This document shows positions 1 to 48,009 of a DNA stretch of 64,000 nucleotides, one piece after another. The DNA is taken from contig CAVYRF010000002.1 in NCBI GenBank assembly GCA_963770895.1, positions 2,176,001-2,240,000 on the forward strand, read 5' to 3'. Made by a program: the position numbers and the translations under genes. Each line of letters starts with the position of its first letter. Position 1 is the first letter of the stretch. The notes beneath the pieces were generated by a model. It did no database searches and was not told where the DNA came from. It saw only the letters and a program-made list of their open reading frames with translations. The stretch comes from an uncultured Acidobacteriota bacterium. GTDB lineage: Bacteria > Acidobacteriota > Thermoanaerobaculia > Multivoradales > UBA5704.

Positions 1-33474
<33,474 letters not shown>

Positions 33475-38520: not shown

Positions 38521-40887
38521 ATGAGCGCTACGCCGGCGCCGCGCTCTGTGCGCCCTCGTTCTTCGCGGACAGCGCGCGGCAGGCCGCTCGCCGAGCTGCT
38601 GGCGACCTGCCTGGAAGCGCCGCGCCGGATCGACCGGCGGGTGGTGGCGCGGCTGGTGCGCGAGCTGGCGCCGGGCGGCGCCGATCCGCGGCTCGCCCTG
38701 GTGCTGCTGGCTGCATTGGTCTATGCCCGGCCCGGTCTGCTGCGCGCCGGCGACACCGCGCTGCTCGACCGCCTGCAGGCGCTGTGGCACGAAGCCCTGA
38801 CAACCGACCTCGCGGCACCGCTGGGCGCCGCCGTGCGGGCGGTGGCACAGACCGCCCTCGGCCCGGCGCTGGCCGCCCGCCTGCTGTTGCCCGCGCCTGG
38901 CCCGGGTGCCTCCGGCGCCCCTGGTGGCGCGGCGGCGCCGCTCGCCGGCGAGCGGCTGGACTGGCTGCGCTTCTTGGTGACGCGGTATCCCGACTGGATC
39001 GACCTCGATGCGCTCATCCGCTGCTGCGGCGTCGCCGCCGGCATGGTCGACAGCGAACGGGTGCTGGGAGAGCTGGTCGAACCGCTTCTCCACCATGCGC
39101 CCGAATCCTTCACGCCGGCGCGCCTGGACGCGCTGCGCGCGGCGTTCGGTGCGACCGAGCGCTGGCGCTACTTCGCGGCCTTTCTTGCCACGGAGCCGGC
39201 GGCGCCGTCCGCCACCCGGCACCGCGCCGCGGCGGCGCTTGCCGGGCAGCTGCCACGGTGCGGCGAGGCGAGGCGGCTGCGCGGCGGGCCGATGCGCTTG
39301 GCGGTGGTGCAGAACGTCGTCTTCGGCCAGGGCGACGAGCTGATCCGCCTGGCGCCGCTGCTGCAGGCGTTGCTCGACGGCCTGCCGCGGCTCGCCATCA
39401 CCCTGCTGACGCCGCGCCCCTACCTGTACGACCACCCGCGCGTGCGGGTGCTGCCGATCGGCGACTCGGCCGGCGCCGCGGCGCTGGACGGCGACTTCGA
39501 CGGGCTGATCGAGCTCTGGGAGCCCGAGGTCGCCGAGCTGAACGTCGTACCGGCGCTGCACGAGCGGGCCCGGCTGCTGGCGGCGCGACGGCCGCTCCGC
39601 CTGGAGATCGCCTGCAACCTCGGCGTCAATCACTTCGCCTTCCAGAAGGTCGCCCTCGACGGCGTCGACATCGCCGCCCGCCTGGGGCTGGACCGCCGGA
39701 CGGCACGGCAGGTCTACGATCCGGTCCGCCGCTTGCTCGTCGAGCTGGGCCTGCCTTTGCGCCGCGAACACGCGCCGCCGGCGCGCTCGCTGCTGGTCGG
39801 CATTCCGTCGCCCGAGGCGGAGGCGGCCTGGCGCGCCTTGGCTCCGGCGGGCCGTCCGGTGGCGCTCGTCAGCCCATTCGGCGGCACCCGAGAGATCAAG
39901 GGATACGCCACCGACAGACTGGACATCCTGGCGGGTGAGCTGCGCCAGCTGGTGCGTCAGGGCTATCGCGTGGTGGTGCTGCCCAACGGCCAGCCCTGGG
40001 TGACGCCCGACGTCATGGCCGCCCTGGTGACGCGGCTGCCGGTCGCCGAGCGCCGCCACCTGGCGGTGGCTCCCGATCCGGCAGGCCCGCTTCGGGCACC
40101 GTTACCCGGCGTGGACGGCGAGCGGCCCGACCTGCGGCGGCCGGCCGACCGCGTCATGCGTTGGTTCAAGTACTTCGCCGCGCGTGCCGACCTGGTGGTG
40201 AGCGTCGAGGGCTGGCTGTCCCACCTCGGCTGGCAGCTCGGTCGGCCGCTGCGAGTGGTGCTGGCGGCGCAGTCGTACGACGAGGCGTGGTACCCGCCGG
40301 CGCGCGACCGCGCGCAGCGGATCGTGGACCGGATTGCAAGCTGCCCGCCGCAGCGCGGCCGAGGGCGGGCGCCCGATTTGCTTGGCGACGGCGACCGGCC
40401 GCCGCTTCCCGGCCGCGACCGCAAGCAGCTGCTGGTCGCCGCCCTCGCCGGGCTGGGCGCCGCGGGGGGAGCCGCGGTGGAGCCGCTGCTGCTGCGGGCC
40501 GCCGGCAGCGCCGACGAGGATGTGCGAGCCGCGGCGCTCGCCGCCCTGGGCAGGCTGCCGCAGCACGAGGGCATCCGCCGGACGCTGCTGGCGGCGCTGG
40601 GCGCAGCGGACCCCGAGGTGCGGGGAGCGGCGGCGGAAGGGCTCCTGGCAAGCGGGTTCGACTGCGCGCCGGAGCTTGGCGAACGCTATCGTGACGTGCT
40701 CACCGCGCACGTGGCGATCGCCGCGCGTGCCTGGGTGAGCGTCGACGATCTCGGCGCCCCGGCCATCCCGGCGCTGGCGGTCGCCGCCGCCGGGCGGGAC
40801 GACTTCATGCGCCGTGAGGCGCGCTGGCTCCTGGGCAGGCTGCTGCGGCGGCAGGTCAGGCCGTCGCGGCAGGCGGGCGGCCGGTGA
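38521..40887 (+). CDS. GT9 (heptosyltransferase-like) glycosyltransferase with helical N-terminus and C-terminal HEAT repeats
   Basis: GQGDELIRLAPLLQAL, LVSPFGG and ADLVVSVEGWLSHLGWQLGRP resemble GT9 motifs. DEDVRAAALAALG / DPEVRGAAAEGL / DDFMRREARWLLG are HEAT-like. Confidence 0.6.
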   Translation: MSATPAPRSVRPRSSRTARGRPLAELLATCLEAPRRIDRRVVARLVRELAPGGADPRLALVLLAALVYARPGLLRAGDTALLDRLQALWHEALTTDLAAPLGAAVRAVAQTALGPALAARLLLPAPGPGASGAPGGAAAPLAGERLDWLRFLVTRYPDWIDLDALIRCCGVAAGMVDSERVLGELVEPLLHHAPESFTPARLDALRAAFGATERWRYFAAFLATEPAAPSATRHRAAAALAGQLPRCGEARRLRGGPMRLAVVQNVVFGQGDELIRLAPLLQALLDGLPRLAITLLTPRPYLYDHPRVRVLPIGDSAGAAALDGDFDGLIELWEPEVAELNVVPALHERARLLAARRPLRLEIACNLGVNHFAFQKVALDGVDIAARLGLDRRTARQVYDPVRRLLVELGLPLRREHAPPARSLLVGIPSPEAEAAWRALAPAGRPVALVSPFGGTREIKGYATDRLDILAGELRQLVRQGYRVVVLPNGQPWVTPDVMAALVTRLPVAERRHLAVAPDPAGPLRAPLPGVDGERPDLRRPADRVMRWFKYFAARADLVVSVEGWLSHLGWQLGRPLRVVLAAQSYDEAWYPPARDRAQRIVDRIASCPPQRGRGRAPDLLGDGDRPPLPGRDRKQLLVAALAGLGAAGGAAVEPLLLRAAGSADEDVRAAALAALGRLPQHEGIRRTLLAALGAADPEVRGAAAEGLLASGFDCAPELGERYRDVLTAHVAIAARAWVSVDDLGAPAIPALAVAAAGRDDFMRREARWLLGRLLRRQVRPSRQAGGR

Positions 40888-42013
40888 GAAAGCGGCTGGC
40901 GGCCGGCGCACCCCCGGCCTGCGCCTCGGCCAGCTGGCGCTTGGTGCGGAACTCCAGCTCGCGGCCGCCGCCGCACGCCTCGGCGCGCCCGTAGCATGCG
41001 GCGCTCTCGGCGAAGCGCCCCAGGCGGAAGTTGCACAGCCCGGCGGCGTCCCAGGCGAGCACGCCGAAGATCCGCTCGTCGTGCGCCAGCTGCCCGGCGC
41101 AGAGCGCCGCCGGATCGACGGCGGTGAGGCGGGACAGCAGCGGCAGCGCCGCCTCCGGGCAGCCGCCGGCGAGCAGGTGGCGCGCCCGCAACCAGACCAG
41201 CGTCCACTGGTCGGGAAACGCCGCCGCGGCTTCGGCCAGCAGGCCGTCCACCGGCTCGCCCAGCTCCATCAGCACCTGCAGCATGCCGACGTAGACCAGA
41301 CTGTCGGTCGCCGCCGGCGCCCGGGCGGCGCGCACCACGGCGAGGCCGCTCTGGTAGGCGGTACGCGCCGCCTCCAGATCGCCGATGCCATGCAGCGTGC
41401 TGCCGAGGTGCCACCAGGCATAGACGTGCTCGGGCTCGGCGCGCAGCCGCGCCTCGAGCAGCGGCCGGTTGCGCCGGTGCTTGGCCGCCATGTCGCCGTC
41501 GTAGCCCAGGTGGTCGATCGCCAGGTCGCTCTCGCCGATGGTGCCGCCGCCCTGGCGCAGCAGCTCGCCGAGCGCCGGCAGGTGGCTCTCGTGGATGACG
41601 CCGCGGAAGCGCAGGCGCGGGTCGTTGCGGAACAGACGGTGCTCGCGGTAGCGGGTGAAGCCGCGCGCCGGCCGGAAGCGCACCGTGCAGGCCAGCAGGC
41701 GAGGATCGGCGAGCTGCTCGGCGAGGCGGGAGCGGCCGGCCTCGCACACCCGCTCGTCGGCATCGATGTAGAGGACCCACCTGCCGCGCACCGCGTCCAG
41801 CGCTGCGTTGCGTGCCGCGGCAAAATCCTGCCGCCACGGGAAGTCGACGACGCGGGCGCCATGGCGATGGGCGATCTCGCGGCTGCGGTCGACGGAGCCG
41901 GTGTCGGCGATCACCACCTCATCGGCGACGCCATGGAGCGACTCCAGGCAGCCGTCCAGGAAGCGCTCCTCGTCGCGCACGATCATCGCGGCGCTGAGCA
42001 GCAGCGAGCTCAC
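40856..42013 (-). CDS. GT2 glycosyltransferase with TPR region (SunS/ThuS-like architecture)
   Basis: AMIVRDEE, DTGSVD, DFAAARNAAL, IDADE, IHE, HLGY and KHRRN motifs, then TPR-like helices. GTG start at 42013 inferred. Confidence 0.88.
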   Translation of the reverse strand: MSSLLLSAAMIVRDEERFLDGCLESLHGVADEVVIADTGSVDRSREIAHRHGARVVDFPWRQDFAAARNAALDAVRGRWVLYIDADERVCEAGRSRLAEQLADPRLLACTVRFRPARGFTRYREHRLFRNDPRLRFRGVIHESHLPALGELLRQGGGTIGESDLAIDHLGYDGDMAAKHRRNRPLLEARLRAEPEHVYAWWHLGSTLHGIGDLEAARTAYQSGLAVVRAARAPAATDSLVYVGMLQVLMELGEPVDGLLAEAAAAFPDQWTLVWLRARHLLAGGCPEAALPLLSRLTAVDPAALCAGQLAHDERIFGVLAWDAAGLCNFRLGRFAESAACYGRAEACGGGRELEFRTKRQLAEAQAGGAPAASRFLTGRPPAATA

Positions 42014-42041
42014 CGGCGTTTCGGGGGCAGCGTGCCTGCCA

Positions 42042-42518
42042 CTAGTACGGCACGACGTAGACGACGATCTGGAAGACCGCGCTGTCACCGCCCAGCAGGT
42101 TGGCGATGCTGGCCTGCACCGTGCCGCCGCTGCCCACCGGCGGCGTCACCAGCGACCATGCCGGATCGCCGCTCAGCTTGGACGCCGAGACAAAGGTGGT
42201 CCCGGCCGGCAGGGGATCGACGAGCGAGACCGCCGGCGCCAAGCTGCCGGTGCAGTTCTGCACCGTGATGGTGTAGGTGAGGTTGTTGCCGGCGGTCACC
42301 TCGGCGGCGGAGACGGTCTTCTGGACGTCCACCAGCGGGCCGATGTTGGCGGCGCAGAGGTTCGATCCCTGGCCGAGGGCCTGCTCGGCGAGCAGGCCGC
42401 CGAGCGTGAAGGAGGCGACGAGCGGCGTCGCCCAGGCCCCTGCCAGCATGCGCAGGATGAACTGCCGCCGATCGGGGTCGACGTGCGGGAGGATCTGGGT
42501 CAGCTCTTCGGGCGCCAT
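42042..42518 (-). CDS. Twin-arginine-leader protein B with SNLC motif and C-terminally incomplete DUF11 domain
   Basis: MAP...PDRRQF leader; DVQKTVS..VTAGNNLTYTITVQN..VDPLPAGTTFVSAS..IANL..GDSAVFQIVV then stop. Confidence 0.8.
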   Translation of the reverse strand: MAPEELTQILPHVDPDRRQFILRMLAGAWATPLVASFTLGGLLAEQALGQGSNLCAANIGPLVDVQKTVSAAEVTAGNNLTYTITVQNCTGSLAPAVSLVDPLPAGTTFVSASKLSGDPAWSLVTPPVGSGGTVQASIANLLGGDSAVFQIVVYVVPY

Positions 42519-42916
42519 GGGCGTCTGCCTCCAGAGAGTCGAGTGGCGTGCGGCGGGCGGCGCAGGTACGCCAGCGCCGTCGCGGCCAGCAGCAGGCAGG
42601 AGATGACGAGCCCCGCCGGCGACAGCGCCGGCACCTGGGCGATCGGACCGCGATCGACCTGGGTGGTCGCGGTCGCCGTGCGGTGCACGGTGACGGTCGC
42701 CTGCGCCTGGTTGTTGCCGGTCTGCGGGTCGCTCTCCGAGGCGGTGACGCCCGCCGCGGCATCGATCAGGTAGTCGAGCGTCACCGTGTTGGTGATCTCG
42801 ACCGCGGCCCTGGCGCTGGGTGCGCCCAGGGTCCACAGCACCGCCAGGCAGAGCGCTGCCGCCGAGCGCGGCAGCAGGCGGCGAAGCGGCAAACCGGCGC
42901 CTTGCGGGTCCGCCAT
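42500..42916 (-). CDS. Small secreted IPTL-CTERM protein carrying the terminal DUF11 strands
   Basis: Signal peptide ending ARA; ITNTVT...SESDPQTGNNQAQATVTV; VPALSPAGLVISCLLLAATALAYLRR sorting signal. The ATG overlaps the upstream stop (TGATG). Confidence 0.78.
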   Translation of the reverse strand: MADPQGAGLPLRRLLPRSAAALCLAVLWTLGAPSARAAVEITNTVTLDYLIDAAAGVTASESDPQTGNNQAQATVTVHRTATATTQVDRGPIAQVPALSPAGLVISCLLLAATALAYLRRPPHATRLSGGRRPWRPKS

Positions 42917-43410
42917 CAGAGCACCGTCGCCTTGATCGCGAAGGTCGCGCTGGCGCCCTTCGCCAGGCTGTCGAAGACGCCCGCCACGGTACCGGCGAAA
43001 CCCACGGGAGGCGTGGACAGGTCGGTGACGGGGGGCCCGGTGAGCTGCGTGGCGGAAACGAAGGCGGCGCCCACGGGCACCTTCTGGTCGAAATTCACGT
43101 TGGTGGCCGTGCAGGGTCCGCAGTTGGTCACCGTCAGAGTGTAGGTGATGGTGTCGCCCGGCGACGCGGTCTGCGGCGACGCCGCCACTCCCACCGCGAC
43201 GTCGGCCATGGCCGGATTGCCGCAGATAGCGCCGGTGTTGGCGCACAGGTTGGATGCCTGCGCCCGCGCCGGTTCGACCAGCAGCCCGTCGAGCGAGAAC
43301 GAGGCGACGATCGGCGCCGCGTAGGCGGCACCCAGGAGCAGCCTGGAGAGGAACTGACGGCGGTCCGGAGCGAGCCCATCGAACCGTTGCGGTTTTGCGT
43401 CTGGCGCCAT
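42916..43410 (-). CDS. Twin-arginine-leader protein A with SNLC motif and C-terminally incomplete DUF11 domain
   Basis: MAP...PDRRQF leader; ADVAV..SPQTASPGDTITYTLTVTNCGP..ATNV..VPVGAAFVSAT..SLAKGASATFAIKATVL then stop. Confidence 0.8.
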   Translation of the reverse strand: MAPDAKPQRFDGLAPDRRQFLSRLLLGAAYAAPIVASFSLDGLLVEPARAQASNLCANTGAICGNPAMADVAVGVAASPQTASPGDTITYTLTVTNCGPCTATNVNFDQKVPVGAAFVSATQLTGPPVTDLSTPPVGFAGTVAGVFDSLAKGASATFAIKATVL

Positions 43411-43482
43411 GGATCGATCCTTTATTTCATGATCTGCGTGTCGCGAAAGGTCCAGAAATCCCTTGTTTTCTTCGCTTCCGCA

Positions 43483-43531
43483 GTGCCTTTGGCACAGTGC
43501 GCCGAACTTTGTGCATGGAACTTGTGCATGG
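43483..43531. promoter_or_regulatory. Possible operator motifs in the divergent intergenic region
   Basis: Inverted repeat GTGCC-TTT-GGCAC (43483-43495) and direct repeat TTGTGCATGG x2 (43509, 43522) in an AT-richer spacer. Confidence 0.3.
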
Positions 43532-43561
43532 TAAATATGCGGGCAATGGGGTGTCAAGCTT

Positions 43562-44305
43562 TTGCCGTACCTTAGAGCGGGCAGCTGGGATGACGCCATC
43601 TGGCGCTCGGTGGCGGACGATTATCCGGCGGTGCCTGCCCGCTTCGCGGCCGGCGACGTGGTGCTCGACCTGGGCGCGCACATCGGCGCCTTCGCCGCTC
43701 TCGCCGCCGCCCGCGGCGCACGCGTGGTGGCCTACGAAGCCAGCTGGCACAACCTGGCGCTGGCGCGTCTCAACACCGCCTCGCTGGCAGGGGTTGAAGT
43801 GCGGTGGGGCGCGGTCTGGCGCTCCGACCTGCCGCCGGCGCCCCGCTGGTACACGCCGGCGCCCAACGCCGCCAACACCGGCGGCGGCTCGGTGCTCTTC
43901 GCCGGTGCCATGGCGGTGAGCGCCGATGCCGGCGTCGACCCGTGGGGCGCCGGCACTGGCCGAGATGCCGAAGTTGAGGTGGCGCCGCGGGCGCACGCGG
44001 TGCCGGCGGTGCCGCTCGACGACATCCTGTGCGAGCTCGGCGCGGTGCGCCTGCTCAAGCTCGACGTCGAAGGTTCCGAGGTGCCGATCCTGGCCACCTC
44101 GCGCCAGCTCGCCAGGGTGGTGCAGATCACCGGCGAGGCACACGACCTGAGCGTCGGGCAGCAGGGCCGTCTGGCGCCCGACGCGCAGGTCGCGGGCGTA
44201 TCCTGCGATGCGAGCGGCCTTGCCGCAGTCCTCGGCGGCGCCGGCTTCACGGTGGCGATGACCGGTGCCGGGCCGCTGCGGCTGTTCAATGCCTGGCGGG
44301 CCTGA
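43562..44305 (+). CDS. FkbM-family methyltransferase
   Basis: VLDLGAHIG, VVAYEA, NTGG and LLKLDVEGSE motifs. Confidence 0.88.
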   Translation: MPYLRAGSWDDAIWRSVADDYPAVPARFAAGDVVLDLGAHIGAFAALAAARGARVVAYEASWHNLALARLNTASLAGVEVRWGAVWRSDLPPAPRWYTPAPNAANTGGGSVLFAGAMAVSADAGVDPWGAGTGRDAEVEVAPRAHAVPAVPLDDILCELGAVRLLKLDVEGSEVPILATSRQLARVVQITGEAHDLSVGQQGRLAPDAQVAGVSCDASGLAAVLGGAGFTVAMTGAGPLRLFNAWRA

Positions 44306-44343
44306 CCGGCGCGCCGCCCGCCACCCGCTGCCCGCCACCCGCA

Positions 44344-45261
44344 ATGAGCACGCCCGTCATCTGCCTCTACAACCGCTTCTTCGAGCGCTGGCCGGTCGCC
44401 GCCGAGATCGGCGCCGAGATCGCTTTCCGGTTTGGCGCCGAGACTCTTGCCGGCGCCGACGCCGTGGTCTTCCATCTGCCGACGCTGGGTGTGCTTCCCG
44501 AGCGCCCCAGAGCTGCGGCGGGCGCCGGCGCCCCGCCGCAGCTCTGGGTGGCCTGGTGTCTGGAAAGCGCCGTCGTCTGTCCGCGGCTCGCCGACCCGCG
44601 GGCGATGGGGCGTTTCGATCTGACCATGACCTACCAACGATCGAGCGATGTCTGGTGGCCTTACTTCGGGCCCGGCACGGTGCCGCACCTGCTGGCGCCG
44701 CCGGGCGTCAAGGGTCCTGGCGCGCCGGTCGTGCACCTGCAATCCAACCCCTTCGATCGCAGCGGGCGCAACCGCTTCGCCGCCGGGCTGATGCGGCGCA
44801 TCAAGGTGGACTCCTACGGCACCGTCCTGCGCAACCGGACCGAGGTCGTGGCGCCCAGCTATGCGGGTCGCACCGCGGTCATGGCCCGCTACAAGTTCAC
44901 CCTGGCGCTCGAGAACTCCATCGCGCACGACTATGTGACCGACAAGTTCTTCGACGCGTTGGCGGCAGGCTCGGTGCCCGTCTACCGCGGCACCCGCGAG
45001 GTGGCCGATCTCGCGCCCGCGCCCGGCTGCTACATCGATGCGGCCGACTTCGCCTCGCCAAGCGAGCTCGCCGCGCACCTCGACCGCCTAGACCGCGACG
45101 ACGCCGCCTATGCCGCCCATCACGCCTGGCGCCATGGAGGCTTCTCGGAAGCTTTTCTCCAGCACCTCCGCCGCCTCGAACGGCCGCCCTTTGCCCGGCT
45201 GGCCGAGCACGTCCAGGACTGGATCGCGGCCGGCCGCCCGCCGCGGCAACGATCGGACTAG
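44344..45261 (+). CDS. GT10 alpha-1,3/4-fucosyltransferase-like protein
   Basis: ADAVVFH, FDLTMTYQRSSDV, VDSYG and YKFTLALENSIAHDYVTDKFFDALAAGSVPVYRG (the FucT signature). Confidence 0.9.
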   Translation: MSTPVICLYNRFFERWPVAAEIGAEIAFRFGAETLAGADAVVFHLPTLGVLPERPRAAAGAGAPPQLWVAWCLESAVVCPRLADPRAMGRFDLTMTYQRSSDVWWPYFGPGTVPHLLAPPGVKGPGAPVVHLQSNPFDRSGRNRFAAGLMRRIKVDSYGTVLRNRTEVVAPSYAGRTAVMARYKFTLALENSIAHDYVTDKFFDALAAGSVPVYRGTREVADLAPAPGCYIDAADFASPSELAAHLDRLDRDDAAYAAHHAWRHGGFSEAFLQHLRRLERPPFARLAEHVQDWIAAGRPPRQRSD

Positions 45262-45336: not shown

Positions 45337-45696
45337 TCAAGCCTGAGGCGCGATGCCAGAGCCGCCGGCGCCGTCGGCGGATGGCGGCGCCGCCTCGTCG
45401 ACTCCTTCGATCAATCCTTCCGCGAGGAACTGCGCCAGACATTCCGCCACCTCGTCGCGCGGCGGCTCGGGAAGATGGAAGCTCCGCGCCAGGAAGGACG
45501 GCAGGGCGGCAGCGGGCGTTGCGCCATCGCACAGCGTGAGCAAAAGAGCCGCGGTCCGGTTCAAGTAATGCACGCGGTCCCGCTCCGGGTGATAGGCGAC
45601 GAACCCGTCGGTCACCTCGCTGAGCTCGACACCTGCGGCCAGCCGCAGCCGCATCTGCCAATCGACCGCGGCGCCCCGCTCCACCGTCTCTCCCAT
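45337..45696 (-). CDS. Stand-alone PqqD-family / RiPP recognition element (RRE) protein
   Basis: EVTDGFVAYHPERDRVHYLNRTAALLLTLCDG...EVAECLAQFLAEGLI, the beta3-alpha3 PqqD pattern. Confidence 0.88.
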   Translation of the reverse strand: MGETVERGAAVDWQMRLRLAAGVELSEVTDGFVAYHPERDRVHYLNRTAALLLTLCDGATPAAALPSFLARSFHLPEPPRDEVAECLAQFLAEGLIEGVDEAAPPSADGAGGSGIAPQA

Positions 45697-45871: not shown

Positions 45872-46675
45872 ATGAGTCGACTCACTCTCCGATGGTTCAA
45901 TCTCACTCAGCGCGATGGGCAGGACCTATGTCTGAAGATCCCAATTTGCAACGTTTATGCTCCGATAATCGATCGGGCTTTTCCTGAAGTGACGCACATC
46001 GAGTGGAGGCAGGGCACGCAAGGCACCTGCTTCACCTATCTCAAGCATATAACCTCCGAAGACTTTGACTCCCTCAACGACTTCCTCCAGCTTCTCGGCG
46101 AGATTCGCTGTCTAACGCTGACCGATCACCTCGCTCCGCACTTTCAAGCCGAACTGGACGAAGCATATGCGCTAGACTTCAATTTTCAGACAGATCTCTT
46201 CCCTCTTGCCTACACGGAAATGGGCAGTCTCGAACACATTGCGAAGGAGCAACAGAATCGCGCCGCCATAGCTCAACTCAACATCCGGCTTGCCGAAGTC
46301 ATCCGCCGCCACCCCTCACTTTCCCGCGTTGAGTTCGTTGCGCCAATGCCGCCGCGCCCCTCAAAGAATTTTCATCTCCCTGTTGAAATGGCTAAGGGCA
46401 TAGGTGCGATCTTGGGGTGCCCAGTCGACCTGAGTCTCACCAAGGCGGAGCATCCGAAACTTCGAACGCTTCCCATTAGGCAGAAGGTCTCCGCGCTTGA
46501 GGAAGCCTTCTCGATTGGAGGCTCGGTTGAAGGTAAAGCCATTCTAATCGTTGACGACCTTTACCAGTCTGGCGCAAGTCTTTGGTCGCTCGCCAGGTTT
46601 TTGAAGTCCCGCGGAGCCCGACTAGTCTATGGACTGGCATGCGTCAAGTCGTGGAGTGATACCGACAACCAATGA
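45872..46675 (+). CDS. Phosphoribosyltransferase-fold (ComF-like) protein, putative defence toxin
   Basis: PRPP-binding motif ILIVDDLYQSGASL. Visibly lower GC than the flanks. Confidence 0.8.
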   Translation: MSRLTLRWFNLTQRDGQDLCLKIPICNVYAPIIDRAFPEVTHIEWRQGTQGTCFTYLKHITSEDFDSLNDFLQLLGEIRCLTLTDHLAPHFQAELDEAYALDFNFQTDLFPLAYTEMGSLEHIAKEQQNRAAIAQLNIRLAEVIRRHPSLSRVEFVAPMPPRPSKNFHLPVEMAKGIGAILGCPVDLSLTKAEHPKLRTLPIRQKVSALEEAFSIGGSVEGKAILIVDDLYQSGASLWSLARFLKSRGARLVYGLACVKSWSDTDNQ

Positions 46676-47646
46676 TGCAGCAAACTCAGTCCATTGAGTT
46701 CGTAGCTTTCTGTCTTCAGGCTGCGCCTGGAGTAGGCGCATCCACGCTTCGCATGGTTCTGAAACGCCTCGCTCAAGAACGGCTCGCACCAGAAGCCCTC
46801 TTCCAACTCGACGACCACGACTTGCTGTTGCGCTTCGGGCTCAAGCCCTCCGCTGTCGCTGCGCTCCGAGAGCCTTGCGACGAAACGCTGGAAACCTGGC
46901 AACGCCTCAAAGCGGAATCTGTGAAGATCCTTGTTTGGGGCCAGGCTGCCTACCCAACGCGGCTCTATACCCTCCTTCGCGACACTGCCCCTCCCTTGCT
47001 TTTTCTCGTCGGCGGGCTAGACAGTTTCGGACGTCCAGCAGTGGGCTTCTGCGGCTCCAGGAGGGCGTCTGAAAAGGGGTTGCGAGTAGCGCGCGATTGT
47101 GCGCATCTGCTGGCGAAACAACAAATCAATGTCGTCAGTGGTTACGCTCATGGCGTTGATCTCGCCGCGCATCGCGCAGCTTTGGAGGCGGGAGGTACTA
47201 CGACCGTCGTGTTGCCCGAGGGTATTCTTCACTTCCGGGTCAAGAGCGAAATTCGCGACTTGCTGAGCGCAGGAGACTTTTCGCGCATCGCCGTTGTGTC
47301 CGAGTTCCCTCCTGGCTTGCCGTGGCGGGCTCACAATGCAATGGCACGCAATCGTACGATCTGTGGCCTTTCACACGCGTTGGTCGTAATAGAATCAGGT
47401 CCGGATGGAGGCACATTCGAAGCAGGCAAAGCCGCACTTAAACTCGGTGAGCCTCTGTTCTGTATCGAATATGCCGAGACACCTCCAGAAGCGGCAGGTA
47501 ATCCGTACTTCTTGAAACATGGAGCCTTCAGTCTGAGGCGCGCGCCGAATGGCGAGCCTAACCTCTCCAGGCTCATGTCTGTCGTACGTGAGGGCGGCAG
47601 GAACTTTGGACAACCGCACCAGCAGGAGCTACTCCTGCACGAGTAA
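46672..47646 (+). CDS. DprA/Smf-family protein, putative antitoxin partner
   Basis: YPTRL, GFCGSR, VVSGYAHGVD, VVSEF, RNRTICGLS and ESGPDGGT motifs. ATGA overlap with the PRTase gene. Confidence 0.9.
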   Translation: MMQQTQSIEFVAFCLQAAPGVGASTLRMVLKRLAQERLAPEALFQLDDHDLLLRFGLKPSAVAALREPCDETLETWQRLKAESVKILVWGQAAYPTRLYTLLRDTAPPLLFLVGGLDSFGRPAVGFCGSRRASEKGLRVARDCAHLLAKQQINVVSGYAHGVDLAAHRAALEAGGTTTVVLPEGILHFRVKSEIRDLLSAGDFSRIAVVSEFPPGLPWRAHNAMARNRTICGLSHALVVIESGPDGGTFEAGKAALKLGEPLFCIEYAETPPEAAGNPYFLKHGAFSLRRAPNGEPNLSRLMSVVREGGRNFGQPHQQELLLHE

Positions 47647-47833
47647 TCAGGCTATTTCTGTAAATACCGCAATAAATTAAAACAGCTGATTCTGCGTGGC
47701 GGGGATCCGGCCGAGCTGCGCCTCTGGTTCCTCCCTTGAAGGCGCTTCATGCTCCAACGGCCCCAAAGTAAAGCGCGGCTCACGGGCTGTGCTTGGCCCG
47801 TCTGTATAAACTACGTAATCTGTGGTGTTTAGA

Positions 47834-47910
47834 TGGTGCGCCCAAGAGGATTCGAACCTCTGACCTACAGCTCCGGAGGCTGTCGCTCTATCCAGCTGAG
47901 CTATGGGCGC
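47834..47910 (-). tRNA. tRNA-Arg(CCG)
   Basis: Reverse complement GCGCCCATAGCTCAGCTGGATAGAGC...CTCCGGA...GGTTCGAATCC...GGGCGCACCA. Confidence 0.97.
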
Positions 47911-47933
47911 GGGGGGTGGGTTTTCAAGGGAGG

Positions 47934-48009
47934 TGGCCTGCCTGGAGGGATTCGAACCCCCGACCCGCGGCTTAGAAGGCCGCCGCTCTATCCACTGAGC
48001 TACAGGCAG
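47934..48009 (-). tRNA. tRNA-Arg(TCT)
   Basis: CTGCCTGTAGCTCAGTGGATAGAGC...CTTCTAA...GGTTCGAATCC...CAGGCAGGCCA. Confidence 0.97.

Follow-up and report, generated by a model that had tools for sequence, protein, structure and literature searches.

What becomes of an immunoglobulin-like (Ig) domain when its strands are encoded in two genes instead of one? The question is raised by three short genes of an uncultured Acidobacteriota bacterium (Thermoanaerobaculia, Multivoradales, UBA5704; GenBank assembly GCA_963770895.1), located between positions 42,042 and 43,410 of a 64,000-nucleotide stretch of contig CAVYRF010000002.1 (positions 2,176,001 to 2,240,000), referred to below as the window. The outer genes encode proteins A and B, two leader-bearing members of a family called here the clients, and the middle gene encodes a small protein with a sorting signal, the anchor. 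Between them they cover the domain that Pfam lists as DUF11 (PF01345) and that was renamed CLIPPER in 2025, according to the main text of the survey concerned (PMC12617251). The interpretation favoured here, with moderate confidence, is a conserved two-gene split of this CnaA-like isopeptide Ig domain, in which the anchor would complete the fold of the client in trans. The following features of the window are the basis of the argument.

42916-43410, minus strand: protein A, 164 amino acids; RRQF leader (residues 1-52, 43255-43410), then CLIPPER/DUF11 strands 1-7.
42500-42916, minus strand: anchor protein, 138 amino acids; Sec-type (general secretory) signal peptide, last two CLIPPER strands, linker and IPTL-CTERM sorting signal.
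42042-42518, minus strand: protein B, 158 amino acids; RRQF leader (residues 1-52, 42363-42518), then CLIPPER/DUF11 strands 1-7.
42686-42805, minus strand: proposed donated hairpin, anchor residues 38-77; ITNTVT strand with N43, 10-residue insertion, DP..NN loop and last strand.
42554-42634, minus strand: IPTL-CTERM sorting signal, anchor residues 95-121; placed by hidden Markov model (HMM) scores and a predicted helix at residues 100-119.

The three genes form a head-to-tail pack on the minus strand, where the ATG of the anchor gene overlaps the TGA of A and B overlaps the end of the anchor gene by 19 nucleotides. Along the 114 positions of the Pfam DUF11 profile (cutoff 24.6 bits), A matches positions 1-84 (E 1e-14, 55.3 bits), B positions 3-84 (E 5.8e-13, 49.6 bits) and the anchor positions 65-114 (E 6.9e-4, 20.4 bits, under the cutoff). 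A first-pass annotation of this DNA had described A and B as carrying the N-terminal and central DUF11 strands and then stopping, and the gene between them as a signal peptide, a DUF11 ending and an IPTL-CTERM signal. Both descriptions are borne out, with an IPTL-CTERM-like signal at the end of the anchor whose scores lie on either side of the cutoff of 20.5 (TIGR04174/PF18203), at 17.8 bits with hmmscan and 20.9 bits in a six-frame search of the genome. Paralogous and orthologous anchors reach 24.2, 27.0 and 20.1 bits, PF18203 is matched by five of seven anchors, and the genome contains 12 IPTL-CTERM matches, both of its anchors included. DUF11 itself is matched in Pfam by all 14 members of the client family.

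The same division appears on a lineage-specific profile of 136 nodes, built from 51 intact DUF11 repeats out of large proteins of relatives: A covers nodes 1-92, B nodes 4-92 and the anchor nodes 89-134. When compared by blastp with individual intact repeats of relatives, the anchor matches 11, and in 11/11 its match is immediately preceded, within that repeat, by a match of B. In ten of these repeats the two matches are -7 to +9 residues apart; in the remaining one the distance is 30, and the B match there stops early, at query residue 59. The nine strands that characterise CLIPPER in a single chain are therefore distributed here, since A and B stop at position 84 and the rest lies on the anchor. 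A search of the PDB sequences with the anchor gave just a chance-level match (4ehc, E 0.18). The complementary coverage of DUF11 by clients and anchor is real and recurs in other genomes. In the same genome, a 1556-residue open frame encodes a multi-repeat DUF11 protein with an anchor-like end; its segment of last strand plus IPTL-CTERM (L010, G000:C2:214862-215065) resembles the anchor (E 1.7e-4), and the anchor gene may plausibly have evolved from it.

A separate adjacent anchor gene with a signal peptide is present in 7/7 assessable loci, that is, those with the flank present: the window, L002, L016/L034, L035, L036, L037 and L044. L045 was left out of this count because it breaks off inside the client gene. 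L016/L034, L035, L036 and L037 come from metagenome-assembled genomes (MAGs) of Thermoanaerobaculia or Acidobacteriota, each with a client-plus-anchor pair, and the metagenome contig L044 repeats the order A-anchor-B-glycosyltransferase with a B copy that is 80% identical. A paralogous cassette is found in the genome of the window itself, on another contig:

L002 (G000:C1:1121555-1125031): PqqD-like protein, 959-1396; client C, 1501-1980; anchor, 1997-2263; GT2 glycosyltransferase with tetratricopeptide repeats (GT2-TPR), 2273-3415.

Client C is an RRQF protein of 159 amino acids, and the 88-residue anchor beside it has a clear IPTL-CTERM signal (24.2 bits). The point at which the clients end is shared by 14/14 aligned family members, two to four residues past strand 7. 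The spacers between client and anchor and their relative reading frames vary between loci, and the two are therefore separate genes and not the sides of a recoding site. A programmed frameshift or readthrough fusing client and anchor was rejected for this reason, and because the signal peptide of the anchor would sit inside the fusion.

It might still be supposed that a once-intact gene for a signal peptide, DUF11 and an anchor was broken by local decay, a frameshift or an assembly error. Intact single-domain proteins with a signal peptide, DUF11 and a C-terminal transmembrane segment do exist elsewhere (P0022, P0023 and P0027); they are without the RRQF leader and show what the unsplit design looks like. 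Such damage is extremely improbable and is rejected, given that the same split occurs in all seven loci, which come from several genomes and include the paralogous cassette, that the anchor has a signal peptide of its own, and that the whole family shares one end position. In addition, the region 41900-43600 is covered in full by two independent metagenome contigs, each of another study, with 76 and 88 substitutions; their indels come to only 8 and 7 letters, just downstream of B's stop or at the edge of A's ATG; these account for all gap letters of both contigs, and none lies inside the three coding sequences. The split is genuine, conserved and not a product of decay. The first-pass annotation had proposed a search for the same split in other genomes, with homologues that are always intact single open reading frames (ORFs) as the outcome that would speak for decay; the search found the split in every assessable locus.

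No leader-bearing fused form was found among 28 near-length matches, nor among the best 150 of the 920 representatives of the leader family described below. The absence of a fused form among proteins of at least 278 amino acids searched with residues 1-60 is weak evidence in the same direction. Among the best 150 leader representatives there are 12 DUF11 carriers, of which 11 end 0-5 residues past the B-like match; the twelfth, P0008 (230 amino acids, on an 828-bp contig), departs after GTTF and looks like a frame-shifted fragment. The split family is rare. Full-length matches to B occur in 3/401 class-level genomes, the window's own included, and in a search of relatives that comprised 41 genomes, again including its own, they were obtained in that genome and in G029 only, the other matches being intact multi-repeat DUF11 proteins.

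The residues that would form an isopeptide bond are divided in the same manner as the strands. In the crystal structure 9IFR, a CLIPPER domain with a CnaA-like sandwich of nine strands, Lys715 and Asn806 are joined by an isopeptide bond, and the catalytic Asp748 lies close by, as described in the main text (PMC12617251). The first-pass annotation had placed the corresponding triad on two proteins, with K67 and D101 on B and N43 on the anchor. The three residues are confirmed by their minus-strand codons, AAG (42318-42320), GAT (42216-42218) and AAC (42788-42790). For B the assignment holds: in an alignment with the sequence of 9ifr_A, K67 falls on the isopeptide Lys and D101 on the Asp. Among the 51 intact repeats of relatives the Lys is present in 49, the Asp in 51 and the Asn in 51, and among the 14 clients the Lys is kept in 11 and the Asp in 13. 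Protein A was correctly said to lack the Lys (it has Val at this position), and it lacks the Asp as well (Gln).

On the side of the anchor, N43 and T46 are invariant in 7/7 proteins, immediately past the signal-peptide cleavage site. Profile-profile alignment of the anchors with the intact repeats by hhalign places the TNT of the anchors on the NTA of the repeats (probability 68.7%, E 4.5e-5) and treats ten residues of the window's anchor as an insertion. Single-sequence alignments agree with this placement of the N43-type Asn for five of the seven anchors; the anchor of L002 has no insertion, and its TNT falls ungapped on the Asn node. From these alignments, N43 is probably, not certainly, the isopeptide Asn in the window's anchor.

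The insertion is a feature of the window-type anchors (window and L044), which have about ten extra residues (42758-42787, in the region of anchor residues 44-53) between the TNT strand and the DP..NN loop. AlphaFold2 (AF2) hints at a short helix at anchor residues 50-54, and both loci with an anchor of this type have two clients, A and B. The cysteines of the domain also differ. An invariant pair in the split family, represented in B by C55 (42354-42356, in the SNxC after the leader) and C89 (42252-42254, in NC at the end of strand 2), is present there, and the Cys pair invariant in the intact repeats of relatives (51/51) is absent. In the clients, the N-terminal extension may be fastened by another disulfide.

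When modelled alone by AF2, the anchor ectodomain (residues 35-94) is predicted to be disordered, with a predicted local distance difference test (pLDDT) score below 50, and is flanked by two predicted helices, the signal peptide and a C-terminal transmembrane segment (100-119). B alone is predicted as a seven-strand sandwich with a domain pLDDT of 84-93, and the best PDB match of this model is 9IFR (E 1.2e-4, TM-score 0.50/0.62, 99 columns). For the complex, residues 53-158 of B and 38-94 of the anchor were modelled, each with its alignment, alongside three controls. The interaction prediction score from aligned errors (ipSAE) was 0.56/0.54/0.52 for B plus anchor and 0.00 for the best control; at least 88% of the contacts are common to the runs, with a partner pLDDT of at least 68. 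The result is graded as weak support on a mark that is passed by 58/80 solved complexes and 2/110 mismatched pairs, and the passes at or below 0.60 comprise 7 of the 80 solved complexes and both mismatches. A multimer prediction had been expected by the first-pass annotation to bring K67, D101 and N43 together: B plus anchor obtained weak support (ipSAE 0.54), in an output of scores without contacts, in which proximity of the triad could not show. The related claim that the anchor completes the fold of its partner stands as far as the conserved split and the complementary coverage are concerned, while for the binding step there is the weak support of the complex prediction.

These elements can be arranged into a mechanism. 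Clients A and B carry strands 1-7 behind a leader resembling those of the twin-arginine translocation (Tat) pathway, and the anchor would be exported by its Sec-type signal peptide. Strand 8, which the clients lack, would form the N-terminus of the mature anchor (xTNTxTV, with the isopeptide Asn), and strand 9, the linker and the IPTL-CTERM segment for membrane attachment or sorting would follow. Once exported, this hairpin, disordered on its own, would enter the open sheet of the client and complete its fold, so fastening the client to the envelope. Where a client keeps Lys and Asp, as do B, paralogue C and G029, a Lys-Asn isopeptide could arise between the two chains in the completed pocket; attachment of A and of the Lys-less subclade would be non-covalent. 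Maturation of the clients, probably by glycosylation, would take place in the cytoplasm through a PqqD-like protein and a SunS-like GT2-TPR encoded nearby, and the clients would then be exported folded by Tat. Cytoplasmic maturation, folded export by Tat and capture by a Sec-exported anchor would together explain the split of the domain. The leader fits the twin-arginine consensus (RRxFLK-like), with R17, R18 and F20 invariant in 14/14 clients, and TatC is present in the genome. Binding is the reading that accounts most economically for the anatomy. The scheme in its fullest form would be a natural tag/catcher pair: client and anchor exported separately by Tat and Sec, the hairpin completing the fold, an autocatalytic K67-N43 bond formed with D101 as the catalyst, and a client matured in the cytoplasm and probably glycosylated, fixed irreversibly to the IPTL-CTERM-sorted anchor. 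This full form is put forward tentatively, as a possibility on the doubtful side.

Several observations weigh against the mechanism. At E<=1 the DUF11 match of the anchor in Pfam is obtained for only 1/7 anchors, the others matching the lineage-specific profile only. A, P0014 and P0015 have no Lys, nor do L035-L037, where Ser replaces it; covalent bonding is therefore excluded as the general mechanism. When the window and L044 anchors are aligned as single sequences, the alignment runs without gaps, Ala and not N43 falls on the Asn node, and N43 of the window's anchor fits that node only if the 10-residue insertion is accepted. The complex score is a weak pass, delivered as scores without contacts, and K67 and N43 were not seen in proximity; since intact domains of this fold have been solved, the pass may reflect likeness to structures that the predictor has learned and not binding. 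With regard to export, no Tat-signal HMM of Pfam or NCBIfam matches the leader at E<=1, so that the Tat assignment is carried by the RRxFLK-like motif.

A further point of this kind is the confident AF2 model of B alone, from which it follows that a stable seven-strand domain in need of no partner is conceivable. A and B might thus be self-sufficient seven-strand Ig-like proteins, secreted or periplasmic, and the anchor a separate small surface peptide, both being relics of a gene fission whose adjacency reflects shared regulation or shared modifying enzymes, such as glycosylation by GT2-TPR. The seven strands of the model are regular, and seven strands are common among Ig-like folds. In their hairpins the anchors of the window and of L044 share only about 40% identity (hand count), against 80% for the B orthologues, so the hairpin diverges faster than B, and the weak score of the complex points the same way. 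This account is nevertheless judged unlikely, because the anchor ectodomain is made up almost wholly of the two strands that the clients lack and, taken by itself, is predicted to be disordered, and because N43 and T46 are strictly kept directly behind the cleavage site. Moreover, a Lys and an Asp are preserved in B-type clients which, without the Asn strand, would stay unpaired in the core, and client and anchor genes are adjacent in 7/7 loci, overlapping or closely spaced. Completion of the client by the anchor is thus kept as the preferred interpretation.

The genes around the cassette bear on the proposed maturation of the clients, and in the window they are the following:

40856-42088, minus strand: GT2 glycosyltransferase with TPR repeats, SunS-like; downstream of B, sharing an operon with it, and kept beside the leader family.
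45337-45696, minus strand: PqqD-like (RRE-type) small protein; the ORF is open to 45906, and the likely start, Met71 of the ORF, is inferred by comparison with L036.
43562-44305, plus strand: FkbM-family methyltransferase, divergently transcribed; the same neighbour is found in L016.
44029-45261, plus strand: GT10 (fucosyltransferase-like) glycosyltransferase; the true start is probably inside the ORF.

The start codon of the GT2-TPR gene is uncertain because its ORF overlaps the end of B. The GT10-like and FkbM methyltransferase genes sit between GT2-TPR and the PqqD-like gene, and in L002, L035 and L036 the PqqD-like gene lies directly upstream of the RRQF gene. Farther on in the window, a low-GC island at 45900-48000 (GC content 0.56-0.58 versus 0.70-0.78 around it) may have been horizontally acquired; its genes encode a phosphoribosyltransferase-domain (ComF-like) protein (45872-46675) and a DprA-family protein (46672-47646).

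The RRQF proteins had been named as such by the first-pass annotation, and the motif is indeed present, but the leader as a module and its links to PqqD-like and SunS-like proteins had been missed. The N-terminal 55 residues of A and B are a widespread module with an invariant RR-x-F, an A-P-x-V-A-S-F stretch and S-N-x-C. A search with its profile yields 920 cluster representatives at E<=0.001, of which 115 also reach E<=1e-10, and the best 150 representatives are mostly peptides of 54-127 amino acids. In metagenome contigs such peptides are often arranged in tandem directly upstream of GT2-TPR (L053, L058 and L060). The short-peptide relatives carry KR, not RR, and no Pfam or NCBIfam model matches the leader peptides. 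Ten longer members of the leader family were scanned, of which two contain pentapeptide repeats and eight are without a Pfam match. The RRQF/KRQF-APxVASF leader also occurs on tandem peptides of 57-67 amino acids that end a few residues past the conserved SN, and the leader-peptide loci are:

L053:962-1573; L058:163-537; L060:1287-1687; L049:2989-3177 (metagenome).

In two alphaproteobacterial MAG contigs (L042:3616-5851 and L043:2741-6303), a PqqD-like gene and GT2-TPR flank genes for unrelated cargos that bear the same leader. A further PqqD-like ORF is present in L043, whose ORF 2741-3943 encodes a protein that resembles an HprK-related kinase.

The presence of a PqqD-family protein and a SunS-like GT2 beside leader-bearing substrates is reminiscent of SunS-type glycocin and PqqD-RRE systems. 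The best NCBIfam match of GT2-TPR is the SunS S-glycosyltransferase TIGR04195 (E 9.8e-16), and at 57.6 bits it is far below the equivalog cutoff of 350, so that the enzyme is SunS-like in architecture only. The product of 45337-45696 scores 29.4 bits against the PqqD family PF05402, above the cutoff of 23.4, and 28.4 bits against the HPr-rel-A subtype TIGR04353, under the cutoff of 35. The present system differs further from these in that its substrates include folded domains and its leader is Tat-like; glycosylation is putative. In the literature searched, supplementary files aside, no description of a module of leader, PqqD-like and SunS-like proteins was found.

In the SpyTag/SpyCatcher and SnoopTag/SnoopCatcher pairs, a short peptide supplies a strand to an Ig-like domain that is incomplete without it, and the two are linked autocatalytically by a Lys-Asn(Asp) isopeptide. 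The working principle of these pairs, and of isopeptag/pilin-C, is the same as that proposed here. These pairs are laboratory constructs, mostly of the CnaB type and of Gram-positive origin, whereas the present case is a CnaA-like domain of a diderm that is naturally divided between two genes, with a division that is conserved and a bond that is putative. The production of tag/catcher pairs by splitting isopeptide domains is reported in the cited text (PMC5487036). The CLIPPER domain of 9IFR resembles the present one in fold and sequence family, in the positions of the Lys, the Asp and, probably, the Asn of the triad, and in belonging to an envelope or surface protein with a sorting signal, to judge from the main text of the survey (PMC12617251). 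In 9IFR and the 51 intact repeats, nine strands and triad are in one chain; here strands 1-7 (with Lys and Asp) and 8-9 (with Asn) are on two products with different export signals. The main text of the survey, supplementary tables aside, makes no mention of split domains (PMC12617251), and no description of a natural split isopeptide and anchor system was found in the literature searched, supplementary files aside.

In chaperone-usher and type V pili, an Ig-like subunit that lacks the last strand of its fold receives one in trans from another polypeptide. These pili depend on dedicated chaperone and usher or protease machinery and are non-covalent polymers; in the present system two strands are missing and the donor would be a dedicated membrane anchor. 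The threads of the archaeon Sulfolobus acidocaldarius (Saci_0406) combine donor-strand complementation with a proposed spontaneous intermolecular isopeptide involving Asn and with heavy glycosylation, as the cited text describes them (PMC9715654). By analogy, they appear to be the nearest natural counterpart found. They differ in being homopolymers, in the bond itself, which joins the N-terminal alpha-amino group of Asp24 to Asn57, and, as far as the same text describes them, in having no CLIPPER domain, anchor gene or Tat-like leader (PMC9715654).

The example of the threads lends some interest to a polymeric arrangement, in which clients would be joined by donor-strand exchange through their N-terminal extensions, as in chaperone-usher pili, type V pili and the archaeal threads, with the anchor as a basal, membrane-tethered strand donor. 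This arrangement was prompted by an SNVTVPNTS-like stretch that many C-type clients (L035-L037, P0009-P0016) carry after the leader and that resembles the TNTxTV of the anchors; the window also has two clients per anchor. However, A and B have no such motif in their N-terminal extension, an extension could supply only one of the two missing strands, and among the scanned neighbours there is no usher, chaperone or pilin-protease gene, although no search was aimed at these. A polymer is accordingly considered improbable, and completion of individual clients by the anchor is retained for what follows.

Autocatalytic isopeptide domains are known as intramolecular staples, and split forms such as SpyTag/SpyCatcher are, to our knowledge, laboratory inventions. 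If the proposed mechanism is true, an isopeptide Ig domain split by nature would here, for the first time, serve to display a protein covalently on the cell surface, and bacteria would be using the tag/catcher trick to attach a separately exported protein to their envelope. It would give small IPTL-CTERM proteins a concrete role and would provide a new pair, derived from a CnaA-like scaffold, for covalent coupling or fold complementation. Beyond the split domain, the module of leader, PqqD-like protein and SunS-like glycosyltransferase, with its 920 cluster representatives, points to an undescribed leader-dependent maturation that takes place before export.

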